DNA from: Atractiella rhizophila
Lineage: Eukaryota
DNA: 35,935 nucleotides
Direction: 5' to 3'
NCBI GenBank assembly: GCA_021432655.1
Contig: MU271645.1
Location: 1 to 35,935, forward strand
Below the pieces are notes generated by a model. The model ran no database searches. It saw only the letters and a list, made by a program, of their open reading frames with translations, and was not told the origin of the DNA. The stretch's first letter is position 1; the number at the start of each line of letters is the position of its first letter. The translations under genes were made by a program, and so were the position numbers. Shown here piece after piece: positions 1,650-32,000 of this stretch.

Positions 1650-4148
1650 TTACGATGGGGTTGCTAAAGGGAGTGTGATGGAGGGAGACGTGAGTGAATT
1701 TATGAGACTGCTACCGTTGACCATACCAGTCGTAATGACGACAAAATTTCTCCCTAGAACGCCGTGAGGATCGCATTATTCGGCCCAAAGAAATTGCACT
1801 ACCTATTTGTTGACCCAAAAAGCGCAGTGCGGATACTTCTGCGAACGTTACACCACCAATAAAACAGACGACGCTGGTTGGGGTTTGACGTGACGTCCTC
1901 AATTCTGATAGGCCATATCATGTCAGTTTTACGGAGCGGAGCATCTAGGCAAGTACTGACGCTTTGACTTGGCTTCTGTCGCTTGATTCTCTTGAACCTC
2001 GTCCACCACTGGTGTCGTCATGATCTTCAAGAGGTCTTCGATTGCCTTCCATCCAACAAACGTTCCGTTCTTGCCAAACGCAGCTTGCACAAGTCGAACG
2101 CTCAAGGGGGAGTATCCAGAGAAAACGTATGCGGCATCTTCCGGATTGAGCTCGTTGACTTCATCGACAATCAATTTAAGAGGTTTCCGAACGGCGGAGA
2201 AGGAAGAGCGGGACGAAGAGCTCTGACGGGAAAATAAGCCCAGTGATGATAGGGATATCATCGCAGGAATGTAATTGTAGCCATATGTCTGCAGGTGTTG
2301 TTAATGGGAGCAATTGCACCACAAAAATCAAGCGAACCTGTAGCAATTCCTTCTTAAGGTCTTCAAATGTCTTCGGCTTAAGTCCTCCGTTCACTAGACT
2401 GTAAAGACACAAGAGGCGAAGCACTATTCGAAGTGGAGCTTCTTGATTGATAAGGTTTCGAATCGTGTTCTCTTGAGTCGCAAGCTCCAACCCAGCAACA
2501 AGATCTGGCGGTCGTCAGGATACAAACTTTGATTGAAGAATGGGACGCCGCACTTTGTTGCACCTCGAGTATCTGACCAAACTCTTCCGATGATGTCGTC
2601 GACATAATCTCCTCCGCAAGGCCAGTATCTATGCCAGGCAGCGTTAGTTCCATCTTAGCTAACAAGAAAAGTCTACATACGAAGGCGCAATGCAGCGTGC
2701 TCTTCCGCTAATCCCGGCATCTGCCCAACAAAAGCTCTTAAGTCGCCAATGCTCCTCGCCTTGTGGCGTTTCTCATAATCTTCATTCAATTTGCGTGCGG
2801 TGCGATTGAGGAGAGGTCCGACAACGATGAAGTTTTGGTCTCGTAACTCGGCAAACAACGAGTCTGCCGTAGATGACAGCAAATGCTTCTTTCGGGGTGG
2901 CGGCTGTCCGGTGAAAGCTGGCTGGTGCGTTGAGCTGGGATGAACTCCTCCAAACCCAAAAGCGGCGTTTGGGACGGGAGAAGCAGATGTGGATGGGGTT
3001 GGCGGATTCAAGAGATTCTGGTCAACTTCGACGTGCGCTAACGAGTAGCGACTTAACTTATGACGATGATACGGATAAACGAGATGGGACAAACAGTTCT
3101 TGATCCCCAACAGCTCGTCGACCAGCCCTAAGTAGGTAAGCTGAGTGCAAAGGGTTGTGACCATGTCGACCTGCCGGTCAAGAAGAATCATGCTATCTAT
3201 GCTTCCTAAACCTAAGCCGAATCCACCGGCGTCTTCATCAATGGGTGCTTCAGCCCGTAGGCGGTTCAGCAGGGCAGCCAAACGCTGGATCATGAGTTAA
3301 CAAATTGACCCATCATGAACGGTTGAGTAGACCTACCTTCGAAGCTGCACCTAAGCCTAGAATTCGAGGAATTGGTCCAAAAGCCTGCTGTAATGTCATT
3401 AGGCATTTTCCCAAATCGTACACCGTCTCATAATCATTGTCCTAGTACTCATGAGCCAACGCACACGTGTGCCACGAAACGTACAAGGAATATCTTCCGA
3501 TAAACGGAAGGGTCCAACTCCATGCTCAAAAGGTCTCTTTCGAGGGTAAGCAATCCCAGAGGAAATTCATGGAGGTCAATAGAGCCATAGACGCCCAAGT
3601 CTTCTAGTGTTGTTTTGCAAAGAGAGGTAATACGCGGTGTGACAAAGATGGTATGGGTATGACGGTTAGGAGGTGAAGCACGAATCTGGTCTAAATCCTC
3701 ATTCGAACCCAATTGCTCGAGACAGATTGTCACTCACTTGCGATAATTGTTAGGAGCTTCTTCTTGGGTCGGCAGACATATATCAGATTTCTCTGGAAAT
3801 TAACATTCCAGCTCGAACCGGAGCTGAGGTCGTTTGCTTCGAGCCAAAACAAGCGGTCGACTCCATGAGCCTTTTACCCAGTTCAGACCAGCCGAACACA
3901 TTTTCAACGATACTTACGCGCAAACTCGAAATTTCAATGACTAATCCCAGTGGTCCAGCGAGTTCTGGATCGAGTAGAAGAGTCTTTGGCCCAGGAATGC
4001 GATCGAGGAGGTCGAGTAAGGACTTCTGGGCTATGGACTTGAAAATTGAGGTATCCGGGAAGGAGACATTAGCTGAAGGAGTAGAGTTTGAAGCTGCAGG
4101 AAGAGGCGTTGTTATAGACGGAGGGGTAGCTGTGAATGTTGGCTGCAT
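1650..4148 (-). CDS. VPS33: Sec1/Munc18-family vacuolar sorting protein Vps33 (multi-exon)
   Basis: Exons read LLDLLDRIPGPKTLLLDPELAGPLGL, LERDLLSMEL, ILLDRQVDMVTTLCTQLTYLGLVDE, AYVFSGYSPLSVRLVQ and VCFIGGVTFAEVSALRFL. ATG at 4148, TAA at 1650-1652. Confidence 0.93.
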
Positions 4149-4486: not shown

Positions 4487-6469
4487 TCAGAGCTTCCCTT
4501 TCGTTCCCTTGCGCAGTTCTTCAAGTTTTCTAAGTTCCACCCGTCTAATCTTTCCGCTAACCGTCAAGGGGAGGCTGTCAACAAACTCAATCTAGGGGGA
4601 CGTCAGCCTCTACTTGTTTCTCAAAAGAACAGTAAACATACCTCTCGAGGATATTTATAAGTCAAAAGCGGACGGGAGAACTCTGTCAGCTGTTGCTTCA
4701 GCCCACTTTCAGTTATTTCCCCGCTGTTCAACTTCGCCTTGAATTCTTGTGACAAAATGATGAAGGCTTTGACGATCGAACCTCGCTCACGATCAGGACT
4801 TGCAACTGCAGCACTCTCGACGACAGCCGGATGCCCCTTCAGGGTGCTCTCAACGTCAAATGGTCCAATTCGGTATCCTGCGCTTGAAATGACTAATAAC
4901 TGCTCTTCAGTGATTGCATGAAGGAGAAGACATCACCTACTATCGTCGTCACGCCCAATAAACCAAAAATAACCATCTTCATCTCGCCAGGCTTTATCGC
5001 CTGTAGAGTACCATTGCTTTCCATCTCCGCTTTCGATGTATGTGTTCATCAACTCGCCATTTTCGCCCTCATATCCAAGTGTTATGACACCACGTTCCTT
5101 CACATTGCTTCTTGCAACCTCGACACAGATGAAGCCTACATTCTGCGGACCTCGTTCCAGCACTTTTCCAGCAGGGTCGAGAACCTGGACGTCTAGTCCA
5201 GCAGCAGCAATACCCATGCTCCCCATCCTCACCCTAACGTTGGGAAAATTCCCAACAAGCGCAGTCGTCTCTGTCTGCCCAAATGCTTCCCGAATGATCA
5301 ATCCAGTGTGCTGCTCCCAAATCTTGATCACTTCTGGATTGAGCGGCTCACCCGCTCCGTTGCACCATCGAAGAGCTTTCGGAGGGCATCTTCTGAGTTG
5401 TTCAACAGCGGCTGTGGTCGTGAGAGACCGATAGACGGTCGGTGGGAAGCAAATATTCGTGATTGGGTGCTCGTGGAGGAGGGAAAGCGTTAATTCGGCG
5501 GAGAATGCGGACGGTGCTGGTGGTGAGAAGATGAAGATGGTCGCTTTGAAATAGAGGCTGCCGAAGGTGCTATAGCCTGCTTTGGCCCAACCAAGATCAC
5601 CAATGTTCTGTAAGAATTATGAGAATTCGAGACTCCTCACTAATCGAGAAACATTGACCCAAATGAGCGCGTTGTCACCCAGATTGTACCATTCTCCTGT
5701 GAGGCGATGCGCGAAAGGGTGATGGTGATTGTGAATAACTCGCTTTGGCTTCCCGGTCGTGCCAGATGTGAAATCTGCCGCTACATGATCACAGTGTGAT
5801 GTTGTGGACGAAGAAAATCAAACAGATGATTGAAGTGTCCGACATCTCTGGACGAGCTCCGCCCCACTTCTTATGCTGTGGAATGTTCGCCATGGCGTGC
5901 TCCCAGATGATTAGCTTCCTCAAGCTGTCCTGTGGAATGGTATCACGAGGTTCGAGATCTGGATCTCCAGCCACAAATACGACGTTTCGAACAAGAGGAC
6001 ATGATTCTTTAACTTGCAAGAACTTGGTGACAGCTGAAGCAGAACCGACGAAGGTGGTACATTTTGCAGCTTGCGCTCGGCATTCCAGCTCTGCCATGCG
6101 CCACAGATGTTATCAGACGGAGTGGAGAAGCAACTCAAGCTCACCTTTGGATGAAAGCAGAGTGGTGCAAGGGATTGGAATTCCTCCCATGCGCAACAGG
6201 CCCAAGACGACTTCGAACCAAGCCACTCCGCGAGGCAATTGCACCAGGACTCTTTCTCCCTTCCCAACTTTCAATTGTTCTCCAAAAACAATCGCAGCTC
6301 TTTCCGTTCTCTCTGAGAGTTCAGCGTAACTAATTTTTTGAATCGCTTTTCGGTTTGTAGAAACGTAGTAAAGTGCAGGGTGCGAAGGCGATTCTCTAGC
6401 ATGTTTATCTAGAACAGCATAAGGATATGGCTGAGATGGTTCGATGGTGGGAGTAGAAAGCGAAGCCAT
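4487..6469 (-). CDS. Medium-chain acyl-CoA synthetase (ACSM-like, AMP-binding adenylate-forming enzyme)
   Basis: A3 motif FTSGTTGKPK (~5745-5775), [47 protein letters not shown] and A10 motif LPLTVSGKIRR. The protein ends ...KGKL*. Confidence 0.9.
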
Positions 6470-9887: not shown

Positions 9888-10666
9888 TCAAGCTTGGTGT
9901 CCCGGAGTCGCCAGCATCTTAGGATCGTATCCTTCTGCTCCCAAAACCTTGTCCCCAACCTTGGCTGGATGAGAAGCTGTTCCATCGAAGAAGTCAGAAC
10001 GAACGTCGAGTCAGGATCGAAATACCTTACCAATGGAGACAAAAATGATGCGGCACCACGATTCTCCTTTATTGATCCATCCATGCGTCACGCCTGAAAC
10101 GTTTAATGAGTGGAGGGCAGGTTATAACATGAGCTTGAGACTATGCACCACGTTGGATGAGTATATCACCAGCACGTATCACCGTTTCTTCCCCAGAGTC
10201 AAGCACCGCAGTGACTTCTCCATGCAGGACAATGGCGTAATCCACAGTCTCAGTTCGATGCATGAACGCCTTCTCTCCTTTCGGAGCCATATCCGCAACC
10301 CTCAAGATCGTACCCTCTTTGTTCCCGATGTCGCTCAGAGCATTGAACATGGGGTCTTTGAAAGGGTTATCATTGTTCGCTAGATATTTCCTTTCAGTTT
10401 GGCATGAGGCGACGAACAGCCGGATGCAGACTCACCAGGGGTCTTCTCCGTCTCGTACAAAGCCTTCCCATCCGCGAAGTCGTGAATATCTGGACAACTA
10501 TTCATGTACTGGAACGTACCTTAAATCCAAGCCTGCCAGAAGGACCAACTGGATCAGTGTTGAAGGATTCATCGCTGACGAATATGGCTTTCCCCTCGTC
10601 GTTGTGCCCTGTCACGATTCGTCGAGTTGCTGGTAGGTCATTTGGGACCACGAAAGGAGCCGACAT
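9888..10666 (-). CDS. Cupin_2 (RmlC-like) barrel protein, 5 exons, intact parent copy
   Basis: MSAPFVVPNDLPATRRIVTGHNDEGKAIF...GFK|ALYETEKTP|ANNDNPF...MHRTETVDYAIVLHGEV...GDILIQRG|VTHGW...; TGA at 9888-9890. Confidence 0.88.
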
Positions 10667-11881
10667 GTTGAGTATGATCGATCGATATATCTGTGCCTCT
10701 CAATGAGTTTCGGGATGGAAGGGCTGTTGAGTGTCGTGAATGTCATGAAATGGCTGTCTCTTAAATAGTTCTCCACACTACAGACTTTCAGAGGCACTAG
10801 GAATAGCCTGATCCTGCCTGACCCGAGGTGGTGGAGGTCGATTACATGGTAAGTTGCCTGATGGCTATGTTGAATATGAAGCTTAGGTAAAGAATCGAAC
10901 TTGCTTAGCCACTCAGGTTCGCAAGCTCGCTTTGCAACAGTGTTTATCTCCTTCCGCGTGTGGTGTTTGAGAGTTGGACGCCGAAGTCGGACATTTCACA
11001 GAGTCAGCAAACTAGCATGTGCACAGTGACTGAATGTGGAAACCGGACTTCGTTATGGGAGCAAGTGGGAGAAACGCCTCTTTAGCTGGAGCTAGGCAAC
11101 TTCCCTAAAATAGCTGAATGGATAGATGGGATAGCAACCACTGTGAATGCTGAGTGGGAGGAACCGAAGCTGACAACAGCAAGCAGCAGATACATCATTT
11201 CAACTCGGAAGGAGCCTCTTTGAAGATAGTTGATCGATAGAACTTGAGCTCTGCTCCGTTCCATGATGCCGCGAACGCATGAACAAAAGAATGCTCACCA
11301 GCAATAGAATGCAGAATATCCGTCAGAGCCCTAATAGGGTGAGAAAGAATACCTGGAGGAGAGAACCAAATACCTGTGATCATCCTTCCCTTGCGATTTA
11401 ATAACCTCCAAGTCAGGATACCATCTCTTGCAAAGCTCCTTGATGCTAGAGACGTCCACGATGCGGTAGTGGAGGTGGTCGTGAACGCGAGGCATGTCTT
11501 TCTTCAAGAACGCCTTGTCTGCGTGAACAGTGTTGCCTGCGAGAATCGCAGTGCCTCGTCTCGGAATATGGCGCTCGATGTATCGAAGAACTCGAAGTTC
11601 GACTTCTTCCATCCTATCGCTCGATTTGAGACAAGCTTCCGTTAACCCAGACTAGCCGAAACGATCAAATAACGTCGTATCAGAAGGGATGGGACAAGCC
11701 TGCCCATGCTGTTTCGTGCACCTTCCGGCATGAATTCGTTAAATTTTGGCATATCAAATCGGAAGACAAACCATTCTCCCATTCCGTCCAAAACACTCTT
11801 GTCCGTTTGGATCACGAAAGTCAGACCGTCATCCAAAGGGTTAAGATCTTTGTCTGTGACTATAACTGCAATTTCCAGTAC
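10423..11881 (+). repeat. Tandem direct duplication, copy 1 (~1459 bp)
   Basis: Starts GATGCAGACTCACCAGGGG at 10423 and ends ...ATTTCCAGTAC at 11881. It matches 11883-13338 at roughly 95-96% identity by eye. Confidence 0.97.
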
Positions 11882-12126
11882 AGATGCAGACTCACCAGGG
11901 GTCTTCTCCGTCTCGTACAAAGCCTTCCCATCCGCGAAGTCGTGAATATTTGGACAACTATTCATGTACTGGAACGTACCTTAAATCCAAGCCTGCCAGA
12001 AGGACCAACTGGATCAGTGTTGAAGGATTCATCGCTGACGAATATGGCTTTCCCCTCGTCGTTGTGCCCTGTCACGATTCGTCGAGTTGCTGGTAGGTCA
12101 TTTGGGACCACGAAAGGAGCCGACAT
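11195..12126 (-). CDS. Chimeric cupin(5')::oligoribonuclease(3') gene spanning the duplication junction; new gene or pseudogene
   Basis: Cupin ATG at 12126 and exons 1-2 run in frame across the junction as ...ALYETEKTPGESAS|VLEIAVIVTDKDL... All downstream Orn exons are open to the stop at 11195 (...KEAPSELK*). The ExoI motif WVDLEMTGLD is missing. Confidence 0.65.
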
Positions 12127-13338
12127 GTTGAGTATGATCGATCGATATATCTGTACCTCTCAATGAGTTTCGGGATGGAAGGGCTGTTGAGTGTCGTGAA
12201 TGTCATGAAAGGCTGTCTCTTAAATAGTTCTCCACACTGCAGACTTTCAGAGGCACTAGGAATAGCCTGATCCTGCCTGACCCGACGTGGTGGAGGTCGA
12301 TTACATGGTCAGTTACCTGATGGCTATGTTGAATGAGGCTTAGGTAAAGAATCGAACTTGCTTAGCCACTCAGGTTCGCAAGCTCGCTTTGCAGCAATGG
12401 TTATCTCCTTCCGTGTGTGGTGTGAGAGTTATGACGCCGAAGTCGGACATCTCAGAGTCAGCAAACTAGTATGTGGACAGTGACTGAATGTGGAATCCGG
12501 ACTTCGTTATGGGGGAGAGTAGGAGAAACGCCTCTTCAGCTGGAACAACGCAACCTCCTTAAAATAGCTGAAAGGATAGATGGGGTAGCAACCGCAGTGA
12601 ATGCTGAGTGGGAGGAATCCAAGCTTACACCAGCAAGCAGGGATACATCATTTCAACTCGGAAGGAACCTCTTTGAAGATAGTTGATCGATAGAACTTGA
12701 GCTCTGCTCCGTTCCATGATGCCGTGAACGCATGGATCAGGGGAAGGCTCACCAGCGATAGAATGCAGAATATCCGTCAGAGCCCTAATAGGGTGAGAAA
12801 GAAGCCCTGGAGGAGAGAACAAATAAATACCTGTGATCATCCTTCCCTTGCGATTTAATAACCTCCAAATCAGGATACCATCTCTTGCAAAGCTCCTTGA
12901 TGCTAGAGACGTCCACGATGCGGTAGTGGAGGTGGTCGTGAACACGAGGCATGTCTTTCTTCAAGAACGCCTTGTCTGCGTGAACAGTGTTGCCTGCGAG
13001 AATCGCAGTGCCCCGTCTCGGAATATGGCGCTCGATGTATCGAAGAACTCGAAGTTCGACTTCTTCCATCCTATCGCTCGATTTGAGACAAGCTTCCGTT
13101 AACCCAGACTAGCCGAAACGATCAAATAACGTCGTATCAGAAGGGATGGGACAAGCCTGCCCATGCTGTTTCGTGCACCTTCCGGCATGAATTCGTTAAA
13201 TTTTGGCATATCAAATCGGAAGACAAACCATTCTCCCATTCCGTCCAAAACACTCTTGTCCGTTTGGATCACGAAAGTCAGACCGTCATCCAAAGGGTTA
13301 AGATCTTTGTCTGTGACTATAACTGCAATTTCCAGTAC
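11883..13338 (+). repeat. Tandem direct duplication, copy 2 (~1456 bp)
   Basis: Starts GATGCAGACTCACCAGGGG at 11883 and ends ...TTTCCAGTAC at 13338. A single A at 11882 separates the two copies. Confidence 0.97.
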
Positions 13339-13464
13339 CCTATCCTTTGTGAGATCCAATCCAGTCATCTGTAAACAGTCTGTAAAAAGTATGGCTTGGA
13401 GAATGGGGAAACTGACCTCAAGGTCTACCCAGACGAGGTTGGTGCTAGGATCGGTTGATGACAT
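12648..13464 (-). CDS. REX2: Oligoribonuclease (DEDDh exonuclease, Orn/REX2/REXO2), intact copy
   Basis: MSSTDPSTNLVWVDLE|MTGLDLTKDRVLEIAVIVTD, LAGNTVHADKAFL, HLHYRIVDVSSIKELCKRWYP and HR|ALTDILHSIA|ELKFYR. TGA at 12648-12650. Confidence 0.95.
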
Positions 13465-19264: not shown

Positions 19265-22200
19265 TCAATAACTGAATTCTTCCTTTTTATCCTTAACCGT
19301 TTTCTGGAAAGAACTGAGAAGATCAAAAGTTCCGGTTCCTGCTTTCATAGTTTTACCAATAGCAATATTGGCGGAAGGATTGAGTAGATCATCGAAGTCG
19401 CCATGAAGAACAGCCTCGGACAAGAAGTCAGCCGTTGTCTCAAAGGACGCCTTCGCAAAAGGGGAGGAGCTTGTAGCTATTCCGCGTCGACTAAAAGGCT
19501 TGAAGCCACCTTCCGAAGTCTAACAAAGGATCAGATAGCTGGTTGTCTTGGAATTTCAACGCACCATATAATCAGCAATCAAAGAAAGATGGCGGAAGTC
19601 AACGTCGATTTTGTAGGCTTTAAAGATGCCACGCATCTCCGCAATGATGTTAGCTCTACCTGCTTCAACTCCGTACGTCTCTAGTATGGCCGCAATATCG
19701 TTGGACATTAGCTTAGTCAAGTCTGCAGTACCAAACGCGAATTCCCAACAGGCCCGAATGTTGGCTCCTTCTGTGAAGAGATGTCGCTGAAATAAGCGTC
19801 AGCCATTGATGCAACACATATAGGCGTGCCTACCTCCTCATTTTTGTTTTCGGGCTCTATTAGGTAGCAATTTGCGATTCCCGGAATGGCTCGAACGACT
19901 GCCTTGGAACAAGCTTTCTCAGCGATACCAACTAATAGAAGTTTAGGTTGATTCGCTCCGAGCTGATACAACTTCTGTTTGAGCACTTATGTAGAGGAGT
20001 AATGCGTACCTCGAACTGCATCTTGCACCATTGGCCAGCATCCTTATCGAACTGTACCTGGGAGACGTATTTATAACGAGAGGAAGTAACGATTTCGCCT
20101 TCTAGCGCACGCATCCTCTCCATTTTCGACTTCGATCTATTTTTCGATATAGCTCTCGCAGGTGCGCGACTTTCTGCATCAGTTTGATCCCCAGCTGATC
20201 CTGCCGAGACCACAGACATCTCGTCATCGCTTCCAGCAGCGGCCGTGTCGTCGTCGTCGTAATTGACCTTTTGCCTCGACTGTGCTGCCCGTTTCGCATC
20301 GTCGGCATCGCCGTCTTCAGGGTCCTTATCGTCGTCACCTTTTCTACCAATGGGACGGTCTTCTTCTTCCGCTGAGCGTTCGCCTCCTGCCGCTTTGAGG
20401 GGACGACCCTTTCCTAGAGTTGTCCCTGAATTTTTGGACTCCCTGTTCCGTTGACGCAGCTCCTTGTTGATGTCGGCTTCAAAAATGGGCACGAAGCTGG
20501 TGTGTAGGCTGGAGAGAACTGTTTCAGAATCAATGTGAAATTCCTCCAGATACTCCACTTCAGGATAGAAGTTGAGATGAATGTCGTAGATCCTCGTTCG
20601 CCCATCTTCTCCCTGGGATTTATCGGACAGCCGTTCTTCTACGACAACGGACTCAATAATTTGGCTGAGATGGAGAGCGGAAGTCTTGGTGCAAAATCGT
20701 CTCAGTCGATCCTGATCGTTTTGAACGTCGGGAGGAAGGAAGAGACGCATTGTCGGTGTTTTTGGAGTTTGGGAGGCAGTCATGATAATTTCTCGGAGAC
20801 GAGGGATACCCAATGTCACATTAGCAGCTCCAAAACCTGAAGCGGACTCAACGTGAGAAAGGAATGAAAGATGGAACGCACCAGATAAATGAAAGGTGTT
20901 CAATGTCATCTGCGTCGACGGTTCCCCAACACTAAATGTCCCTCAGTTGTTGACAGATTTAACTGTCGATGACACAACTCACCTTTGAGAGGCCAGCAGG
21001 CCGACTGATTCTCCCGCTTCCACCAAGCTACGCATATACCGCACATCCAGCATACTTTGGAAGGCCGATGGTCGAATCATCTTTGCCAACGCCTTTTCCG
21101 TGATTTCGCCTCTTTCTTTTTTCTTCGGCTTGAGTAGTTTGTTAGGATTCGTCTTGAATGTAGGCTTGCGCTTCCGCGTAGTATTTCTCAGACGTACTTC
21201 CAAGGTATGCCGTTGGATTGAACTTCGATAAAGCTGTTTCCATCGACGAGGAATCGGGTGACTTGAAGATACTCTTCGCGTAATGCCCTGCAATTTCATC
21301 AATAACTCTGCCTTGAAGATCTCTGGGTCTATAGAACTGAGCGAGAGAGTCGTAGTTCTTTGCTACGAATTCGAAATCATACAGCAGCTTCTGCTTTGTG
21401 ACGTCGAGAGAATCTTCGCCGTAATTGAATTGGAGAATGGTCCTATCGCTATTCCGAACGGTGTGGTCGTAATGAACTCGAATCCCTTCTAAATGTTTGA
21501 TGAGACATCGTTGAAGGTAGCCAGATCGACTAGTTTTGACGGCGGTATCGATGAGACCCTCCCGCCCTGCCATACAATGGAAGTAGTATTCCTGTGGCTG
21601 GATCCCCGTTAAGAAACGTTGCGCAACAAAACCACCAGCTCGAGGACGCGTCTCAAAGGCTTTGAAAGATGGGAGGGTTTTTCCACTAACCATCGTCGGT
21701 ACACGACGCCCTTCGAGCGCTTGCTGACCTAACGAAGAGGAGATTTGAGAGGCATTGACAAGACTTCCTTTCGCTCCCGAAATCGTCATTAGCTGCATTT
21801 GATTGCGCGGGAACAGTTTCGAGAGACCAGCTCCAGTGCAATGCTTGTTCGCCTCTGCCCACAATCCTGCCATAGCTGTTGAAATAGTCGTATCCAGACC
21901 AGCTGACTTTCTGTCGTCCCTCAAAACTTCCTCCATCCTCACTCGAAGGTTCGTCTCAAACTCTGGGGTATCCCTCTTGGCTTTGTCTAGTCCTACAAAC
22001 TTATACAACGCCTCTAATGTCCGTTCATGAGCTTCCCCAAGAGTTTTTTTCCTCTTCATCTCGGCTTCAGGTTGAAGTACGAGATCTTCGACACCGCATG
22101 AGAACCCTCGATGCTGGAGGTACTTCGTGAAGAGTCGACTGAGGATGCTGAGCAACTTTCCTGCCACTGAAGCACCGAAAACCTCGTACACGGCATGAAC

Positions 22201-25200
22201 GAGTCCGTTACCTCCAAATTGGGCTTTATCGAGGATACCGCAGATGTGTTCCCCATCCGAGATGATGAACTTGTCCTCCTTTGATTCAGGACCCCAATAT
22301 TTTGCCTCAACCTTCGTCCCAGAGGACATGTTGAGTCCGCTAAACTTGCGAGGAGTGATATTTCTCAGGACTGTCGAGATCTGGTGGAAGACATGAGGCT
22401 CCAGAATTAATATAAGTAAAGAGGAACGAACTATTTGCTTTCCGGTCCATAGCTTCTGAGGTTTCCAAATCGTCGGTGGCAAGGTGATTATCCTCCCCTC
22501 CCCAGTGTAGTCAGATTCCGGTCTTAACGCGCCATAAATGAGTTGATAATACTCCTGGCGAGTGAAAAAGGTCTCCTTGTTCGTCATCCAGACCGCAGCA
22601 ACAATATGGTCCTGGATGAGACCACGGATCGGACCTCCCGAAGTCGGAACGAGGTATTGGTTATCTGTATTGGCGATGAGGCGAGCTTCAGCTTGAGCAA
22701 TGACGTTTTGAGGGAAGTGCATGTTCATTTCGTCTCCATCGAAGTCGGCATTATATGAATTGCTAAAATCATCTTCAGGAAATAGGTATCAGGGAAAGAT
22801 ATGGAGTGCAGACCAATTGGCGTAATGCATTCGAATTGTCTTTTCTCCGGTCAAGACCTTCGCAACATGACACATCATACTGGGCTTATGAAGAGTGGGT
22901 TGACGATTCAGAATGAGAACATCTCCGTCCCTTAAATGTCGATATACTTTCTTCGGAACTGGTGATATCTTCGTCTGCGGGACTCCACTGGCAACACGGC
23001 CGGTATTTCTCTCTATCGAATCCGTAACCTGAAGGGCGTTGGCATGTGCTTCCCTCTCTTCCTGCGTCAAAGTGGCTAGGGAAATGAGGATTCCATCTTC
23101 GCGTTGAATAAATGAAGCACCAGGATAGTTATCGCCGTTCTTGACTAGTACCTGCATTTCCTTCAGATTGTGGTTTGTCACCGGTTCGGGAAAGGTGAGC
23201 TTCTTTGCAAAGATTGGTGGGACACCAATCTCATTCGTTTCAATGTTGACGTCTGGAGAAATAACTGATCTTGCAGCGTAATTGACCCGCTTCCCCTAAA
23301 CATGCAGTCATGAGTTACTTGAAGAAGGCAAGTATGGGACAGGCGAACCATCATGTTTTTCCGGAACAATCCCTCCTTCTTCTCTAATATCTGTTTCACG
23401 CCCATCGGCGGCAGTTTCCCTTGTTTGAGAGGCATGGGGTTCTTGGTGCTGTCCATCATCGAATTGACGGCAATCTGGAGTCCCAGGATGGCATCGAAAA
23501 GCTGACCCTCGAGCCTCGTCCGGTCCACAGGCTTCTCTTTCTCTTTCTCTTTCCCCTTTCCTCCCTTTCTCTTCTCCTTCTTCTCCTTCTCTAGCTCTTG
23601 CCTTTCTCTCTCCTGCTCTTTCAACGCGTCCTCTGTCGTACGAGAAAGAGCAACGTTCAGATCGCGTATGAGGATTGTTTGCGTGAGAATTTTGGACAGA
23701 AGGCCATTCTGGGGATTCTCAAAAAGCTCTGTTCCGAGGGTAGAGGCAGGACGGAAGCGGGAAGGAGGCGTCGAGACGACGTCCATGAAGAATACGTCAG
23801 CAGACGCCCTGAGCCTTCTTCCGGCAATCGTGAGGCCGAAAGGGGTGACATATTCGTCTTGCTCTGTCGACGACGAAGCAGTGGATGTGTAGACGGGTCC
23901 ATGAGGCGAGTAGATGAGGGAGCAAAGCTCGGCTTCGTTTTTGAAAAGAAGGCGGAGGTGGGACTGGACTTCAGTAGGTAGGAGGGTGCGTTCTGTTTGC
24001 TTTTCGGTCTTTCGAGCCCCTATCGCTTTGCTTGCTGGCTCATCATTGACCGCATGGAGATCTTCTCCTTCATCGTCCTCCTCTTCCTCTTCCTCAGAAT
24101 CAGGCCCTTCTTCATAACCTTCATCTTCCTCCTCTTCCTCCTCACTTTCAGAATCCTCCTCGAAACGCCGTTTCCTCTTCTTTCCTTCCATATCTTCGTC
24201 CTCATCACTCCCACTCCCTTTCTCAACAAAACCTTCATCGCTCTCCTCCCCTCCCCTTCGTTTCCCAACACTCTTATCTGCCAATCGTTTCAAAAACGCC
24301 GCATTCTTCCTCTTGATTCCTCTCGCCCTTTGAAAGTCCCTCTGCTTCTTTGTAAGCGAAAACTCCACTATTTTAGTTGCTCCATCCTTCTTCAGTCGAT
24401 GCACATGAGCCTCGCAATGCGAGCACCTGTTCCTCGCGCTCTCCTTGAAAAAACTCGCCAACAGCTTCCTACGCTCATCATGGACCATTGAGCCGCTCTG
24501 CTTGTACGCATCCCGGTCGTAACTCTCCTTCGGTGCGTCATCTGAACTTGAAGTGGATTGAGAGGTCGCGATTACCCTGCGTAGGGAGACGTCGACCCAG
24601 GTAGCGACTTTCGATCGTAGCATCTCAACTGAAGAATGGACCGCGCCAATGTCCTCTCCCGTATCCTCCTCCGTCTCTTCTCCCTTCCCTGTCTTTCTCT
24701 TAGCTTTCTTTTCCTCTTTGTCTGCTTCTTCGCCTGCCGCTGTGAAGAGGTCAACAGACATGGCTGACGTGAGAAGACCGTGTTCGAGTAGAATGAGCTT
24801 GGCTGTATATCTCACAATCTATACTTCCTCAGCAAGCGTCCAGGGAAAGAAAAGAACACTTGCAGCAGCCTCTGTAGCTAAGAAGCGATGACAGTTCGTA
24901 CAGCTCGCTCTGAGGACAGCAAAGCAATTCTTCATGAAAAGGGGATTGTAGACAGGAAAGGGGAGCTGAATGTGTCCGAAATGTCCAGGACAGTTAAAGC
25001 TGGTCAAGCCGCAAGTTGGGCAAATATCCCCATGGGTCGTAGGTCCAAACGCTGGGTCATATAATCCTCCTGAAGTCGGAACATTGGTGTTATCGAAGAG
25101 TTTTGGGTTCTGGACCTGCTTTACGCTCAGAGCCTTCACTTCAGCTGAGGTAAGGAAGGTGAAACTGGTGCTGGTGATCGAACTCGTTATTGGTTTGAAA

Positions 25201-25208
25201 GGGTCCAT
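19265..25208 (-). CDS. RPA190: DNA-directed RNA polymerase I largest subunit; apparent frameshift at ~21157
   Basis: Zn ribbon [58 protein letters not shown], catalytic YNADFDGDEMNMHFPQ (~22715-22760), bridge helix [31 protein letters not shown] and C-terminal GTGTFD. Confidence 0.97.
24060..24250 (-). repeat. Acidic low-complexity (poly-Glu/Asp) insertion within RPA190
   Basis: Encodes EEDSESEEEEEEDEGYEEGPDSEEEEEEDDEGED; TCC/TCT-rich on the + strand. Confidence 0.75.
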
Positions 25209-25473
25209 TCTTCGCTTCTGCTGACACTCCGGACTATAAATCGATGCCCTAGCACCCTTCCTACACGACACAGGACTCTACAGCATGAAGCAAGTTATCA
25301 AAAAAATTTGGAACGATTTATCCCCAAGGGGTATATTATTCTTCTGTCACCTGCTATTTCGCACAACTTTTCTCTGAGTCTACTTCAGTTCTCTTCCTTT
25401 CTTATTCCAGTTCTCTTTGGCTGCATTTCCTAGCTTTTTTTGCGCGTTACTTTCTGTCAGATTTCAAAGCAAA

Positions 25474-27504
25474 ATGCTCGCTTTGAGGTCTTCAGCGTCC
25501 AGTGCCAGTCAGTCGTCTCCCGCTTTTTCATAGCATCGCTCATTAGTCTTGATAATAAGTCGAAAGGTCTTCTTTTCGCTCATATTCTACAACCGTCGTA
25601 CGTCGAACTACTTTTATCTTCATGAAATTCAAGCTCTGCAGCCGTATTGCACGAAATACCTTCGTCCGACTCATCCTGACCCCTCCCCCCTTTCCCACGC
25701 TCAAACTCGTCATTCTCTGCCGGTTTTTGCTCGCGTTCCACTCAAAGTCTCCCGTGGGAAGGGATGTACCATTTGGGACGATAGCGGGCGACAATATCTA
25801 GATTGTTCTGGTGGGATTGCTGTAACTGCTCTTGGGCATGCTGGTGCGTCCGGACTGCTCCTCGCCCTTTCCATGAACAATAATGCTTTCAAATATGCCG
25901 CTATGCTGCCTGTCGTGGCCCTTATATTCGTCTAAATCGGTGACTTTGCTCGAGTTTTGGTGTATTGATACAGGATAGGTAGGAACAGAAACCGCGAACA
26001 GACTCCATGTTTGCTTGATGATCTCTACTACATCTATTCATCCTCTAGTGACTTTAGAAACATTGAACCAGTCAAGAATACGTTGACTTGTGAAATTCTT
26101 TAAACTAGCGCGAAGATAGAATATTTCATCAACCAAGATATGAACGTGTCACTGATGTTGACCCTGGCGCCAGATGAAGGCTTGACAAAGATCCTTGCGG
26201 ACCAATCTTCCCGACTTGTACACTGTTCCAACCTCTTCTGGACAGAGCCCTCGCTCAAACTAACGGAAGATCTTGTCCGTCTCACGCTTCACCATGGAGG
26301 AGTTGGCTTTTCTCCTTCCACTGAACAATCAGGGGACGCAGGATCGGCATCTCTGAAAGCTTTCATCACGAACTCGGGTACTGAATCTAACGAAGCAGCA
26401 CTAAAATTCGCACGGATACACGGCAAGACTCACAGCCCTGGAAAGGGGAAGGAAGAAATTGTGTCTTTCGAAAACTCTTTTCATGGAAGGACATTCGGGT
26501 CTCTTTCCGTTACCAATCAAGCGAAATATCAGGAACCTTTCGCCCCATTACTACCTGGTATCAAGGTTGGCAAGTTCAACGATATTGCCTCTCTGAAGGA
26601 TCTGATAACGGAGAAAACGTGTGGTGTCATCCTTGAGCCAATTCAGGGAGAAGGTGGGATTGAAGGAGCAAGTTTGGACTGGTTGAAGGCTGTTAGGGCC
26701 CGATGCGTGCGTCTTCGCCCTTTCACTCTCCAAATGATATTGATGATCATAACAGGATGAAGTTGGAGCGGTTCTCATTTACGACGAGATCCAAGTCTGT
26801 TTTCCATGGGCGATGAAACACGAAGTTCTTATTCATGATTGTGACAGTGTGGTCTAGGTCGAACGGGAAAGCTATGGGCGCACTCCTCGTTCCCGACGAG
26901 CGCTCACCCTGATATCGTCACTTCAGCAAAGGCGTAAGCCTCCCTCCCAATGTTCAATTTCGCACTCACTATCCATTCTGGAGACAGACTAGGCAATGGA
27001 TTCCCTATTGGGGCCGTCATCCTTCGTGATTCACTCGCATCCAGTATCACAACAGGTTCGCACGGCACTACGTATGGTGGCGCACCGTTGCAATCGGCAG
27101 TGGGGAGCTATGTTCTTTCTCGAATATCTGAAGCTAGATTTCTGGCACATGTTCAGGAGATGGGTTCGTACCTTGAAAAGAGGTTACAAAAGATGCTAGA
27201 GTGGTTTCCCGAGTTGGTACAGGGAATTAGGGGGACGGGATTGATCATGGGTCTCAGAATGAAGAGGGAGGGACTGGAGAAGACCGTGATGGAGGAGATG
27301 AGGCACAGAGGCGTTATTGTCCTGACTGCAGGCAGGAACACGGTCAGGTGAGACCTCTTGGTCTAGATTCACGCGAATCACGGAGACTGACCACACCCCT
27401 GCAGGATTGTACCCAGCCTAATTATCACCAAGGAGGAAATAGATCATCTTTGCGACGTTTTTGAGAGCGTCCTCAGTACTATGGATAAGGGGGAGAGTAA
27501 TTAG
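25474..27504 (+). CDS. ARG8: Acetylornithine aminotransferase, mitochondrial (class III PLP-dependent)
   Basis: [82 protein letters not shown] and HGTTYGG. The N-terminus MLALRSS... looks like a presequence. TAG at 27502-27504. Confidence 0.95.
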
Positions 27505-29020: not shown

Positions 29021-32000
29021 TTACCCTAGCAAGTCTGAAAGTTCAGGGTTAGCCGCCATTGCGATCAGCATATCCTGGAATAACATGAGAGGTTGGACAA
29101 AGGAGCATTACTGGACTGGCGGCTTACCTGTTCAAGGTACTTGCTGACTGAAACAACATCGCCTAGACCTAGCATACCATCTTAGTACTTTCGTAGAGGC
29201 AACAACCAAGGACTTTACCTTTCCGCCGTCGGATCTTCAGCAAAACATCCCTACTAAGAGCATTTGCAGAGCTAGGTTCGAGTGGGCGAAGTTGAATGGT
29301 TTTGTCTAGCGGATCACCTGGAACAGATTCGTAAGATTGTCGAGTTTCCCGCAGGTACTTCAGCTCACCAGGTACGATGGACCAATGATCAAAGGTTTGG
29401 AGCACCATTGCCTGTCCAAGCGTATGCGTTCTCAAGTCCGTCTCGAAACCCGCCGAATCAAGCACGGGAATGTAGGCTTGTACTGTATAGAGTGGACTAC
29501 CGGGTTTCGGTATGTCTTTCGTGACATGCCCACGACGTCTTGCAAGGACAGTATAGACGTCCGATACTGATTCCGCTGGACAAACGATCTCGCAGAAATA
29601 CACCGGTTCCGTTAACCGTGGTGTCGACTAGCACATGTCGTAAGGAGGGGGAAGAAAACAAGGGTGGCGACTCACAAGCAAAAAGGAGGAGTAACAGACT
29701 CGACGAGCTGTTGGAATAATTTGACCCCCTCCACGGAAGATGGGCTCAGGTGCTATTGTGGCATCGAGTAATCGGAACTTGACATTTCGCATCGCTGTGC
29801 GAACCCAATCAGGTTATGTGAGAACAGTTGTTGAGATAGCATCTCACGCTCGTCACATAGCGGCCCTTCACGACTTGCCCATTGGAAGCCTTGCTTAACA
29901 GACTCTTTGATACTGAAAAGGAGCTTCTTGTCAACCTGTTCGGCAGAGGTCAGTAAGCAAACTTCTATGGAAATAAACTTGCCTCTGATGGAAGTGTGTC
30001 GTTCACAAGGATATTAGGCCCCAAATCGTCAGGTCCGAAAGCCCATATCGAACGCGAGGCCAAAAGATCCCAGCCGTACTTCTTCTGGAAATGGTTACCC
30101 AGATCTTTCGGCGCCATCTTGATGGAGACCCGTCCCGTTTCGATATCCTCGGCAATGCCTTTCTCCAAAGGCTCAGATATCATCGTAATTTTGTTCCTAA
30201 GTCACAATCAATACTGCACACAGATTCAGACAAGCTGGCGTAGACACGCACTTCTTGTTAGGGGTTTCAGCGTAGACTTTCAGCGCACTGGTGTCGATCA
30301 CTGTCTCGCAGAATCGTACGACAGGATCTGATACCTTGATTTCGATCTCGGCAAACATTCTCCTCAAGTCGTGCATCACACTATCGAGGTAGAGTTCTCC
30401 CGTTCCCATGAGAACGTGTTCTCCGCTCTCTTCAACCTTCGTCTCGACGAGTGGATACGTTTTGTTGATCTTCCGCAAGCCGTCCAGCATTTTCGGAAGT
30501 TCAGAAGGATTCATGGGTTCTATTGAAATCTTGACGACAGACTGCGTCATGTGCTTCAGAGGTTTGAAGATGTAGAGATCGGAAGGTGGGATGTTGGGGT
30601 CCACGATAGTTGCTGTCTTGTTGATAGAATTATCGACTCCTCCAAGCAAGACATAGTTGCCAGCTGAAAGGCCATTCGTCTCGACATTATAGCTACTTAG
30701 GCGTCAGCATCAACAAGCTCCGAGTTTGACAACGTACCGAGATTCACATATCCAAACACCGTTGACCTTCTGCATCAACATGTCTTCTTCGTCCTCCTGT
30801 GAGTACCCCTCGCCCAATACCTTGACTTCCTGACCCGGTTTAACTGTGCCACTCAATATTCTACCGAAAGTCCGGAACTCTTGCGCATCGTGAGTGGGAT
30901 ACAACTTGGCCGCATGCACAATGAGCGGCCCTGCTGGGTCACAGGCACGAATGGCTTGAGCCATAGGAGAATCCAGAGGTCCAGTAAATGTTGTCTCAAG
31001 CTGGGAAAGAGTGAGCAACTGGCTAGACGAGAAAGCAAACTGCAGACCTTGGCTGACGCGCCTTCGAGTGGATTGGGAATATTGTCGACTACTAGATCCA
31101 CCAGGCCAGTTGAAGGTCCGAAGAATTGACCAAGCACGACTTTTAAAAGCGGTCGAACATCCATTTTGTACATGACAGGCTTGAGGTAAATCTTCATCCA
31201 TCCAAGTGTTTCTTTCAACTTATCCTTATCGGACGCAAGAACCTGCACACCTCCCATAAGCCCCATCGCCTCCAAACAAGAGAGTCGAACCTGTGTATAA
31301 AGCTTGTACAATGGCTCCAAGATGAAATGATCAAACGACCTCTTCTTCGTCCCTCCGCCTTGTTTTGAAAACTTCTTTCTGTCCCCTTCCGCCTCAGGAT
31401 CGTAGAAAATATCTCCCCACAATCGCAAAGCGAACTGCTCGATGTCCATGGAACCTATGTAACCTTCAACACTTATAATATCAAGGTACCATAGAGGACA
31501 TACCGAACGTGTCGGCATACATTTTTGCAAAGCTCCTCAATGTGAAGCACCAGCCCATTGATGAGGATGCGAATGCGACGTTGCCCTTTTCTGGTGACAG
31601 ACGATATTTGGGATCAGGGTTAATTGAGCTGTTGGTTACGCCTAAGTTCCGAACAGTTGGAAAAGCTCGATGCTCACCTGATGACCGTGTTGACTTCCTC
31701 AATAGTATGCCGAATTTTGAAGTACGCGTCCGAAGGAGGTAGTCGTAATTCAAGGATGAGGCGATCCATCTTGTTGAGGACCAAGACCATGGGTACTGAT
31801 TGGGTCATTAAATGTTTGATAACCCGTTGCGTCTCTAGAAGTACCTGTATCATAACTACTTGTCAAAAATATTTCATTGAGCATAGAAGGGTAAATGTAC
31901 TCCTTCAGCCACGTCAACGATAACGATAGGCACCGTCAGCTAGTCGTACTGCTGCGGCAGTTTCATCTTCGAAGTTAACATGTCCCGGTGTATCGAGCAT

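Follow-up and report, generated by a model that had tools for sequence, protein, structure and literature searches.

Two intact genes and a hybrid locus between them

The window analyzed here is the whole of contig MU271645.1 of the Atractiella rhizophila assembly, 35,935 bp in length. On its minus strand it carries a gene for an oligoribonuclease (REX2), a gene for a single-domain cupin protein and, between these two intact genes, a hybrid locus in which the upstream region and 5′ part of the cupin gene precede the 3′ part of REX2 in the same orientation. The gene order (intact REX2, hybrid locus, intact cupin) corresponds to two head-to-tail copies of a unit that spans parts of adjacent same-strand genes. 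A first-pass annotation, made from the sequence, had proposed a tandem duplication whose ends fall within cupin intron 2 and REX2 exon 2, and this structure was reproduced when the two copies were aligned. The features involved are the following.

12648–13464, minus strand: REX2/oligoribonuclease parent, 191 amino acids (aa), six exons (13464–13417, 13368–13229, 13178–13157, 13108–12831, 12784–12753, and 12703–12648)
11195–12126, minus strand: chimeric locus, read-through model, 228 aa, with exons 12126–11980, 11923–11772, 11721–11700, 11651–11374, 11330–11299, and 11250–11195
9888–10666, minus strand: cupin parent, single-domain, 185 aa, five exons (10666–10520, 10463–10436, 10379–10149, 10093–10031, and 9976–9888)
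11883–13338, minus strand: copy B of the duplicated unit, from REX2 codon 27 to the stop, then the 521-nucleotide (nt) intergenic sequence, cupin exons 1 and 2, and the first 13 nt of cupin intron 2
10423–11881, minus strand: copy A of the duplicated unit, which matches copy B in content and supplies the REX2 body of the chimera and, with its cupin part, the 5′ portion of the intact cupin gene
12127–12647, minus strand: intergenic copy B, the 3′ flank of the REX2 parent and the upstream (promoter) region of the chimera
11882, minus strand: junction base, a single untemplated T that matches neither parent

The two copies form a direct tandem duplication and are of nearly the same length, 1456 nt for copy B and 1459 nt for copy A. 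Their alignment of 1452 columns shows 53 substitutions (3.65%; 96.35% identity) and, in addition, seven indel events; the duplication itself is far beyond chance. On the REX2 side the unit begins with the first base of codon V27 (exon 2), at position 11881 in copy A and 13338 in copy B; on the cupin side it ends 13 nt into intron 2, of which positions 11895–11883 are retained before the T at 11882. Comparison of the junction sequence with both parents revealed no microhomology at the joint. The absence of shared sequence, together with the one filler T, suggests end joining, and is unlike what an assembler overlap or a homologous unequal crossing-over would leave behind. A transposon or another repeat was considered as mediator and rejected, as a scan of the whole window found no other repeat family of at least 60 nt, no inverted repeats, and no tRNA genes. 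The origin of the locus is a real tandem duplication of the end-joining type, about 1.46 kb long, that ignored gene boundaries.

That two intact parents flank the hybrid, as had been claimed, is borne out by full-length matches in the protein database. The spliced cupin model differs from the database protein P0122 at 0 of 185 residues, and the spliced REX2 model differs from P0002 at one residue of 191 (S2P). P0002 matches the Pfam family RNase_T (PF00929; 5.1e-32) and aligns with human REXO2 (6n6i; 3.4e-55) over residues 8–188. P0122 contains a Cupin_2 barrel at residues 88–154 (Pfam) and aligns over residues 9–158 with PDB entry 3es1 (1.9e-27); the representatives of the cupin family (3857 at E values up to 0.001) mostly align from about residue 10–14. 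An N-terminal extension of REX2 was rejected, the frame upstream of 13464 being open but without an ATG. Intron 3 of REX2 has a GC donor (GCTTGT...TAG) in both copies (13109–13156 and 11652–11699, minus strand), and its splicing is confirmed by the match to P0002.

In the database, both proteins belong to A. rhizophila and are encoded on a 125,764-bp contig that is part of the same assembly. When REX2 exon 4 was searched against longer proteins (300 candidates), P0002, a 191-aa "ribonuclease H-like protein", was the sole 100% match among the best 120 of 258 matches; cupin exon 1 gave one match from two candidates, the 185-aa P0122. With an identical cupin and a REX2 that differs at 1 of 191 residues, the 125,764-bp contig holds a second version of the gene pair. 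The window may correspond to part of that contig, either as its other haplotype or as a segmental copy of recent origin. None of the proteins found in these searches corresponds to the REX2 parent in the window, which has Ser at residue 2, and the database places the cupin protein solely on the 125,764-bp contig; public annotation of the window may therefore lack or mis-model both intact parents, yet call the truncated REX2 copy between them.

Reading frame and composition of the hybrid

From the ATG at 12126, and with the cupin donor GTGAGT (11895–11890) read through, the frame of the hybrid is open across six exons to the native REX2 stop at 11197–11195. The resulting model of 228 aa is composed of cupin residues 1–58, five linker residues encoded by what is left of the intron plus the filler base, and REX2 residues 27–191 with the change V185A, so that residues 64–228 of the hybrid equal residues 27–191 of P0002 with one change. 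The start, donor, stop, and open frame all agree with the first-pass annotation, and the junction peptide that it had predicted is present in the translation of 11774–11923. Because the prior for staying in frame across a random joint is about 1 in 3, the open frame alone is unremarkable.

Along with the ATG and exons 1 and 2, the hybrid inherits the entire 521-nt cupin upstream region, and all four of its REX2-derived introns keep their splice sites. A putative TATA-like element, TATTTAAG, lies roughly 90 nt upstream of both cupin-type ATGs (approximately 12209–12216 and 10763–10770, minus strand) and is kept in both copies. A gene on the opposite strand or in another frame over the region was also considered, and was rejected after none of the five long open frames there gave a Pfam match.

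Splicing of the orphaned donor

Three further features bear on whether the fusion frame could be translated.

11890–11895, minus strand: consensus 5′ splice site (GTGAGT) of cupin intron 2, left orphaned in this copy, which lacks the branch point and acceptor of that intron
11642–11644, minus strand: premature stop TAA, 30 nt before the start codon of P0123, encountered in a message in which donor 11895 has been joined to acceptor 11722 of REX2 intron 2
11195–11612, minus strand: public gene model P0123, 108 aa, with exons 11612–11374, 11330–11299, and 11250–11195

The donor is a perfect consensus and is used in the cupin parent, as the match to P0122 shows. We examined eight AG sites downstream of donor 11895, seeking a branch motif (YTNAY) 6–40 nt upstream of each. 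Five of these sites are in frame, with introns of 30, 36, 42, 48, and 120 nt, and none of the five has the motif. At the other three, where introns of 98, 100, and 174 nt would break the frame, the motif is present, either as CTGAC or as the TTAAC of REX2 intron 2; their use would leave frames of 86, 76, and 68 codons, respectively. All 11 introns that are confirmed by database proteins are 43–56 nt long and contain YTNAY. An in-frame product needs either a consensus donor that goes unused or a short intron without a branch-point motif.

The first-pass annotation had considered the joining of donor 11895 to the REX2 acceptor at 11722, and had expected it to shift the frame. It does so, and leads to the stop at 11644–11642; however, the R given at the end of the shifted peptide is obtained only if the next intron stays unspliced, and becomes S if that intron is spliced. 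The acceptor at 11722 is also open to the weak REX2 donor at 11771, in competition with donor 11895, and if the weak donor wins, as fungal short-intron recognition might favour, the upstream donor would be read through. The splicing outcome is not predictable from the sequence.

We favour the explanation that the hybrid locus is an inert by-product of the duplication and yields no working protein, with a probability of about 0.6. The duplicated segment extends from REX2 codon 27 to a point 13 nt into cupin intron 2, which gives the order REX2, hybrid, cupin. The donor, when used, would pair with one of the three downstream sites that have a branch motif, none of which keeps the frame, so that the message would end early, after 68–86 codons, and would probably be degraded.

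The public gene model at the hybrid locus

P0123 agrees with the spliced model at every position (0 of 108 residues differ), including the Ala that is specific to the chimera. It starts at an internal Met of exon 4 (11612), which is residue 84 of the parent. When exon 4 was compared with proteins of similar length (34 matches from 41 candidates), only P0123 was 100% identical, and it is the only model at the hybrid locus among the A. rhizophila proteins found. Among the matches listed, no protein of at least 162 aa contained exon 4 except P0002, from another contig, and in the database protein search no protein of at least 87 aa held cupin exon 1 except P0122.

A transcript with REX2 exon 2 in frame would offer at least 132 codons from an earlier Met. 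Since P0123 starts 30 nt past the stop left by the 174-nt intron, despite this longer option, the model fits a frame that is broken upstream. If the locus is inert, its main practical value would be as a warning to annotators, the public 108-aa "ribonuclease H-like protein" being a fragment of a truncated copy.

P0123 matches RNase_T (Pfam, 4.7e-14) at residues 5–91, which correspond to profile positions 77–163 of 164, and REX2 exon 4 also has an RNase_T match (Pfam, 1.2e-10). This match and the existence of the public model would speak for the expression of only the annotated 108-aa C-terminal fragment, from its internal start. We nevertheless regard such an outcome as highly improbable: the fragment is without strands β1 to β3, about half of the domain; its ATG sits behind the 68-codon upstream frame if the cupin promoter is used; no independent promoter is evident; and, in our judgement, models of this kind are common in the automatic annotation of truncated copies.

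What a fusion protein would lack or keep

The part of PMC6613908 that describes the active site of human REXO2 gives D15, E17, and D115 as the acidic motif and H162 as the general base; L21 is inserted as a wedge between the two bases, on which W64 and Y132 stack (Y132 being donated by the partner subunit), and the 5′ phosphate is capped by S111, R133, and S138. Alignment to REXO2 identifies D14, E16, L20, W63, T111, D115, Y132, R133, S138, H162, and D167 as the equivalents in the fungal REX2. With codons 1–26, which precede the breakpoint at V27, the hybrid has lost D14 and E16 (the D-x-E of the first exonuclease motif) and the L20 wedge. It retains W63, D115, Y132, R133, S138, H162, and D167, with the second and third motifs present.

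The first-pass annotation had pointed to the absence of the WVDLE segment, which holds the first two acidic residues of the DEDDh signature (D14 and E16), and this segment does lie upstream of V27. The loss is larger than that, however. In an AlphaFold2 model of P0002 (32-sequence alignment; predicted local distance difference test, pLDDT, 91.6), β1 spans residues 10–17 and β2 residues 27–35, so the hybrid is predicted to begin exactly at β2, with the whole of β1 and the β1–β2 loop, L20 included, absent. The RNase H-like fold is built on a five-stranded sheet with strand order 3-2-1-4-5, in which β1 is central. With this central strand missing, folding becomes doubtful, beyond any effect on catalysis, and a read-through fusion would probably be misfolded, judging from the model.

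It is safe to infer from the residues present that a read-through fusion would be catalytically dead, as had been proposed: D14 and E16 are lost, and DEDD-motif mutants of Vibrio cholerae Orn are inactive according to the portion of PMC6613908 that deals with them. The cupin piece is the first third of a single domain (residues 1–58), the barrel at residues 88–154 being absent from the hybrid, and neither cupin exon 1 nor the junction exon gave a Pfam match.

Divergence between the two copies

The substitutions between the copies are unevenly distributed. A central patch of 775 nt (13013–12239), whose limits were set after seeing the data, contains 51 of the 53, and the remaining 681 nt of the repeat hold only two, with none in the first 325 nt. 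Introns 2 and 3 of REX2 show no difference in 98 sites, versus nine differences in 91 sites for introns 4 and 5 (Fisher 0.0011), and this contrast cannot be explained by selection on exons alone. The repeat is a mosaic of young and old sequence. The suggestion that the hybrid may be a young pseudogene is not established as to its age, since the non-coding DNA in the middle of the repeat is about 9% diverged.

Intergenic copy B has 38 substitutions in its 521 nt, and nowhere in the repeat is divergence higher than in the roughly 258 nt that directly follow the REX2 stop. The densest spot of differences is found in REX2 intron 5 (12735–12746 versus 11282–11292), where four C/T differences fall within 8 nt, together with a 1-nt indel, copy B having C and copy A having T. 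Repeat-induced point mutation was considered and rejected: there are 32 transitions and 21 transversions, and the transitions are about balanced in direction (17 versus 15).

If the patch came from another version of the locus, by conversion from a homologue or through a duplication between haplotypes, both lineages would have been ordinary REX2 genes while they diverged. An allelic origin is made plausible by the second contig, with its near-identical gene pair. Under the inert by-product explanation, the low divergence of the exons would accordingly reflect the history of the sequence (an allelic central patch, or gene conversion) and not selection on the hybrid.

Alternatively, the duplication could be an assembly artefact, with two haplotype versions of the 1.46-kb sequence placed end to end in a small contig when a heterozygous genome was assembled. 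The window is indeed a small contig, a second version of the locus exists on the 125,764-bp contig, and the divergence of the copies is allele-like, low in exons and high in non-coding DNA. We consider this explanation very unlikely, however. The joint lies between unrelated sequences, without overlap and with one extra base, whereas assemblers rely on overlaps to join sequences, and the window is free of Ns. Moreover, the two ends of the unit consist of 325 nt and about 240 nt of identical or near-identical sequence, which a collapsed bubble would not duplicate, and the ratio of 53 substitutions to seven indel events is unlike raw long-read error.

Inert by-product or new gene

The first-pass annotation had presented the locus as a case of gene birth, a view that is only partly borne out. 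A hybrid with an open frame does exist, but its translation needs a consensus donor to be ignored, and the public model is only a 108-aa fragment. As a functional new gene, the locus would encode a fusion of 228 aa (or 212–218 aa) under cupin-type regulation, that is, a dead oligoribonuclease-like subunit which pairs with REX2 or holds dinucleotides uncut. We consider this unlikely. A more specific form of the proposal, which appears more doubtful still, is that of an expressed and selected pseudo-enzyme driven by the cupin promoter, which would pair with REX2 or sequester dinucleotides and so adjust either the final stage of RNA decay or the level of dinucleotides in conditions that induce the cupin, the conservation of the exons in the patch being the mark of purifying selection.

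Several observations weigh against an inert by-product and favour such a gene. The REX2-derived exons and introns of the hybrid contain no stop, frameshift, or lost splice site, and the read-through frame and the four nearby AG sites (30–48-nt introns) are all in frame. The 263 nt upstream of the chimera ATG are 98% identical to those of the cupin parent, which makes transcription plausible. Within the patch, 5 of 271 coding sites differ versus 46 of 504 non-coding sites, about fivefold fewer (Fisher 5e-5), and none of the seven indel events falls in coding DNA (p 0.049). The coding changes in 165 codons comprise four synonymous and one non-synonymous (V185A), for a ratio of non-synonymous to synonymous differences per site (pN/pS) of 0.07, although with five differences the test cannot separate the models (P 0.05–0.2 under one neutral copy); V185A itself lies in the low-confidence C-terminal tail of the AlphaFold2 model. 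For a neutral hybrid that diverged in situ, about 15 coding differences would be expected versus the five seen (Poisson P of five or fewer = 0.002).

The sequence of the dimer interface is a further point on this side. The interface salt bridge of Escherichia coli Orn, R130–E139 in the part of PMC9676404 concerned with it, corresponds to R133 and E142 of the fungal protein, and the hybrid sequence keeps both, along with the cross-subunit Y132. In the corresponding part of PMC6613908, the inactive D12A protein of V. cholerae Orn still makes stable dimers.

Nothing speaks more strongly for a selected new gene than the Poisson deficit of coding changes, an argument that holds only if the patch diverged in place. 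With a patch from another version of the locus, the argument from selection loses its force, and the contrast between introns 2 and 3 (0/98) and introns 4 and 5 (9/91) shows that exon conservation is explicable by mosaic history. The conservation of the exons must then be due either to selection acting on the chimera or to the import of a patch from an allele. Also counting against a functional gene are the predicted deletion of the entire β1, which makes a stable RNase H-like fold doubtful, a cupin piece that amounts to a third of one domain, the dependence of the frame on an unused consensus donor, and the 108-aa fragment in the public record. In addition, the hybrid would still donate Y132, so that a mixed dimer would keep one complete site, and any dominant-negative effect would probably be weak.

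If the hybrid were expressed and selected, it would be a cleanly resolved fungal example of a new gene made in one step, with the parents in place and the joint known to the base, and it would provide a natural "dead" partner of a dinucleotide nuclease of the essential type. If it is an inert by-product, it is an ordinary structural variant, useful as a marker that separates two versions of the locus in the assembly.

Surroundings of the locus

The gene for the largest subunit of RNA polymerase I is located at 19932–25277 on the minus strand, with Rpb1 domains 1–5 in successive open frames; a 546-aa frame within it (23178–24818) had no Pfam match and matched yeast RPA190 (4c2m_A) at 3.6e-31. 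Pieces of other housekeeping genes flank the region at 3–512, 2673–3296, 4933–5616, 26104–26760, and 29169–31219, and represent, respectively, a zinc-type alcohol dehydrogenase cut by the contig end, a Sec1-family protein, an AMP-binding enzyme, a class-III aminotransferase, and an EF-G-like GTPase.

Comparison with known systems

A literature search for oligoribonuclease, cupin, and chimeric gene in combination found no prior description of this hybrid; the A. rhizophila genome is acknowledged as unpublished data in one paper. Tandem duplications that cross gene boundaries and make chimeras are a well-described class, and the hybrid is of this known kind, with its function unproven. In Drosophila yakuba, 76 chimeras were counted among 1116 tandem duplications, and loss is the prevailing fate of chimeric duplicates in Drosophila, according to the relevant part of PMC5460883. 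As in the chimeras described there, the 5′ end and promoter of one gene have here been joined to the 3′ end of its neighbour with the parents kept. The present case differs in that it is found in a basidiomycete (Atractiellomycetes) with introns of 43–56 nt, and in that the hybrid is known from its sequence alone. Furthermore, the breakpoints fall in an intron and in an exon, the frame of the fusion hangs on an orphaned donor, and the copies are a mosaic of 0% and about 9% divergence.

With the DEDDh oligoribonucleases, REXO2 and yeast Rex2 among them, the hybrid shares D115, H162, and D167, the Y132, R133, and S138 of the phosphate cap, and the R133/E142 pair, but it is without β1, D14, E16, and L20, and is not a functional member of the family. 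With the Cupin_2 proteins (PDB 3es1 and 8x0u) it shares the first 58 residues, the upstream region, and intron 1, the barrel (88–154) being absent. Like unprocessed pseudogenes, the hybrid is a 5′-truncated copy of REX2 that lies beside its parent and has essential residues missing. Unlike them, it is free of stops and frameshifts, shows few replacement changes, and has gained the promoter and start codon of the neighbouring gene.

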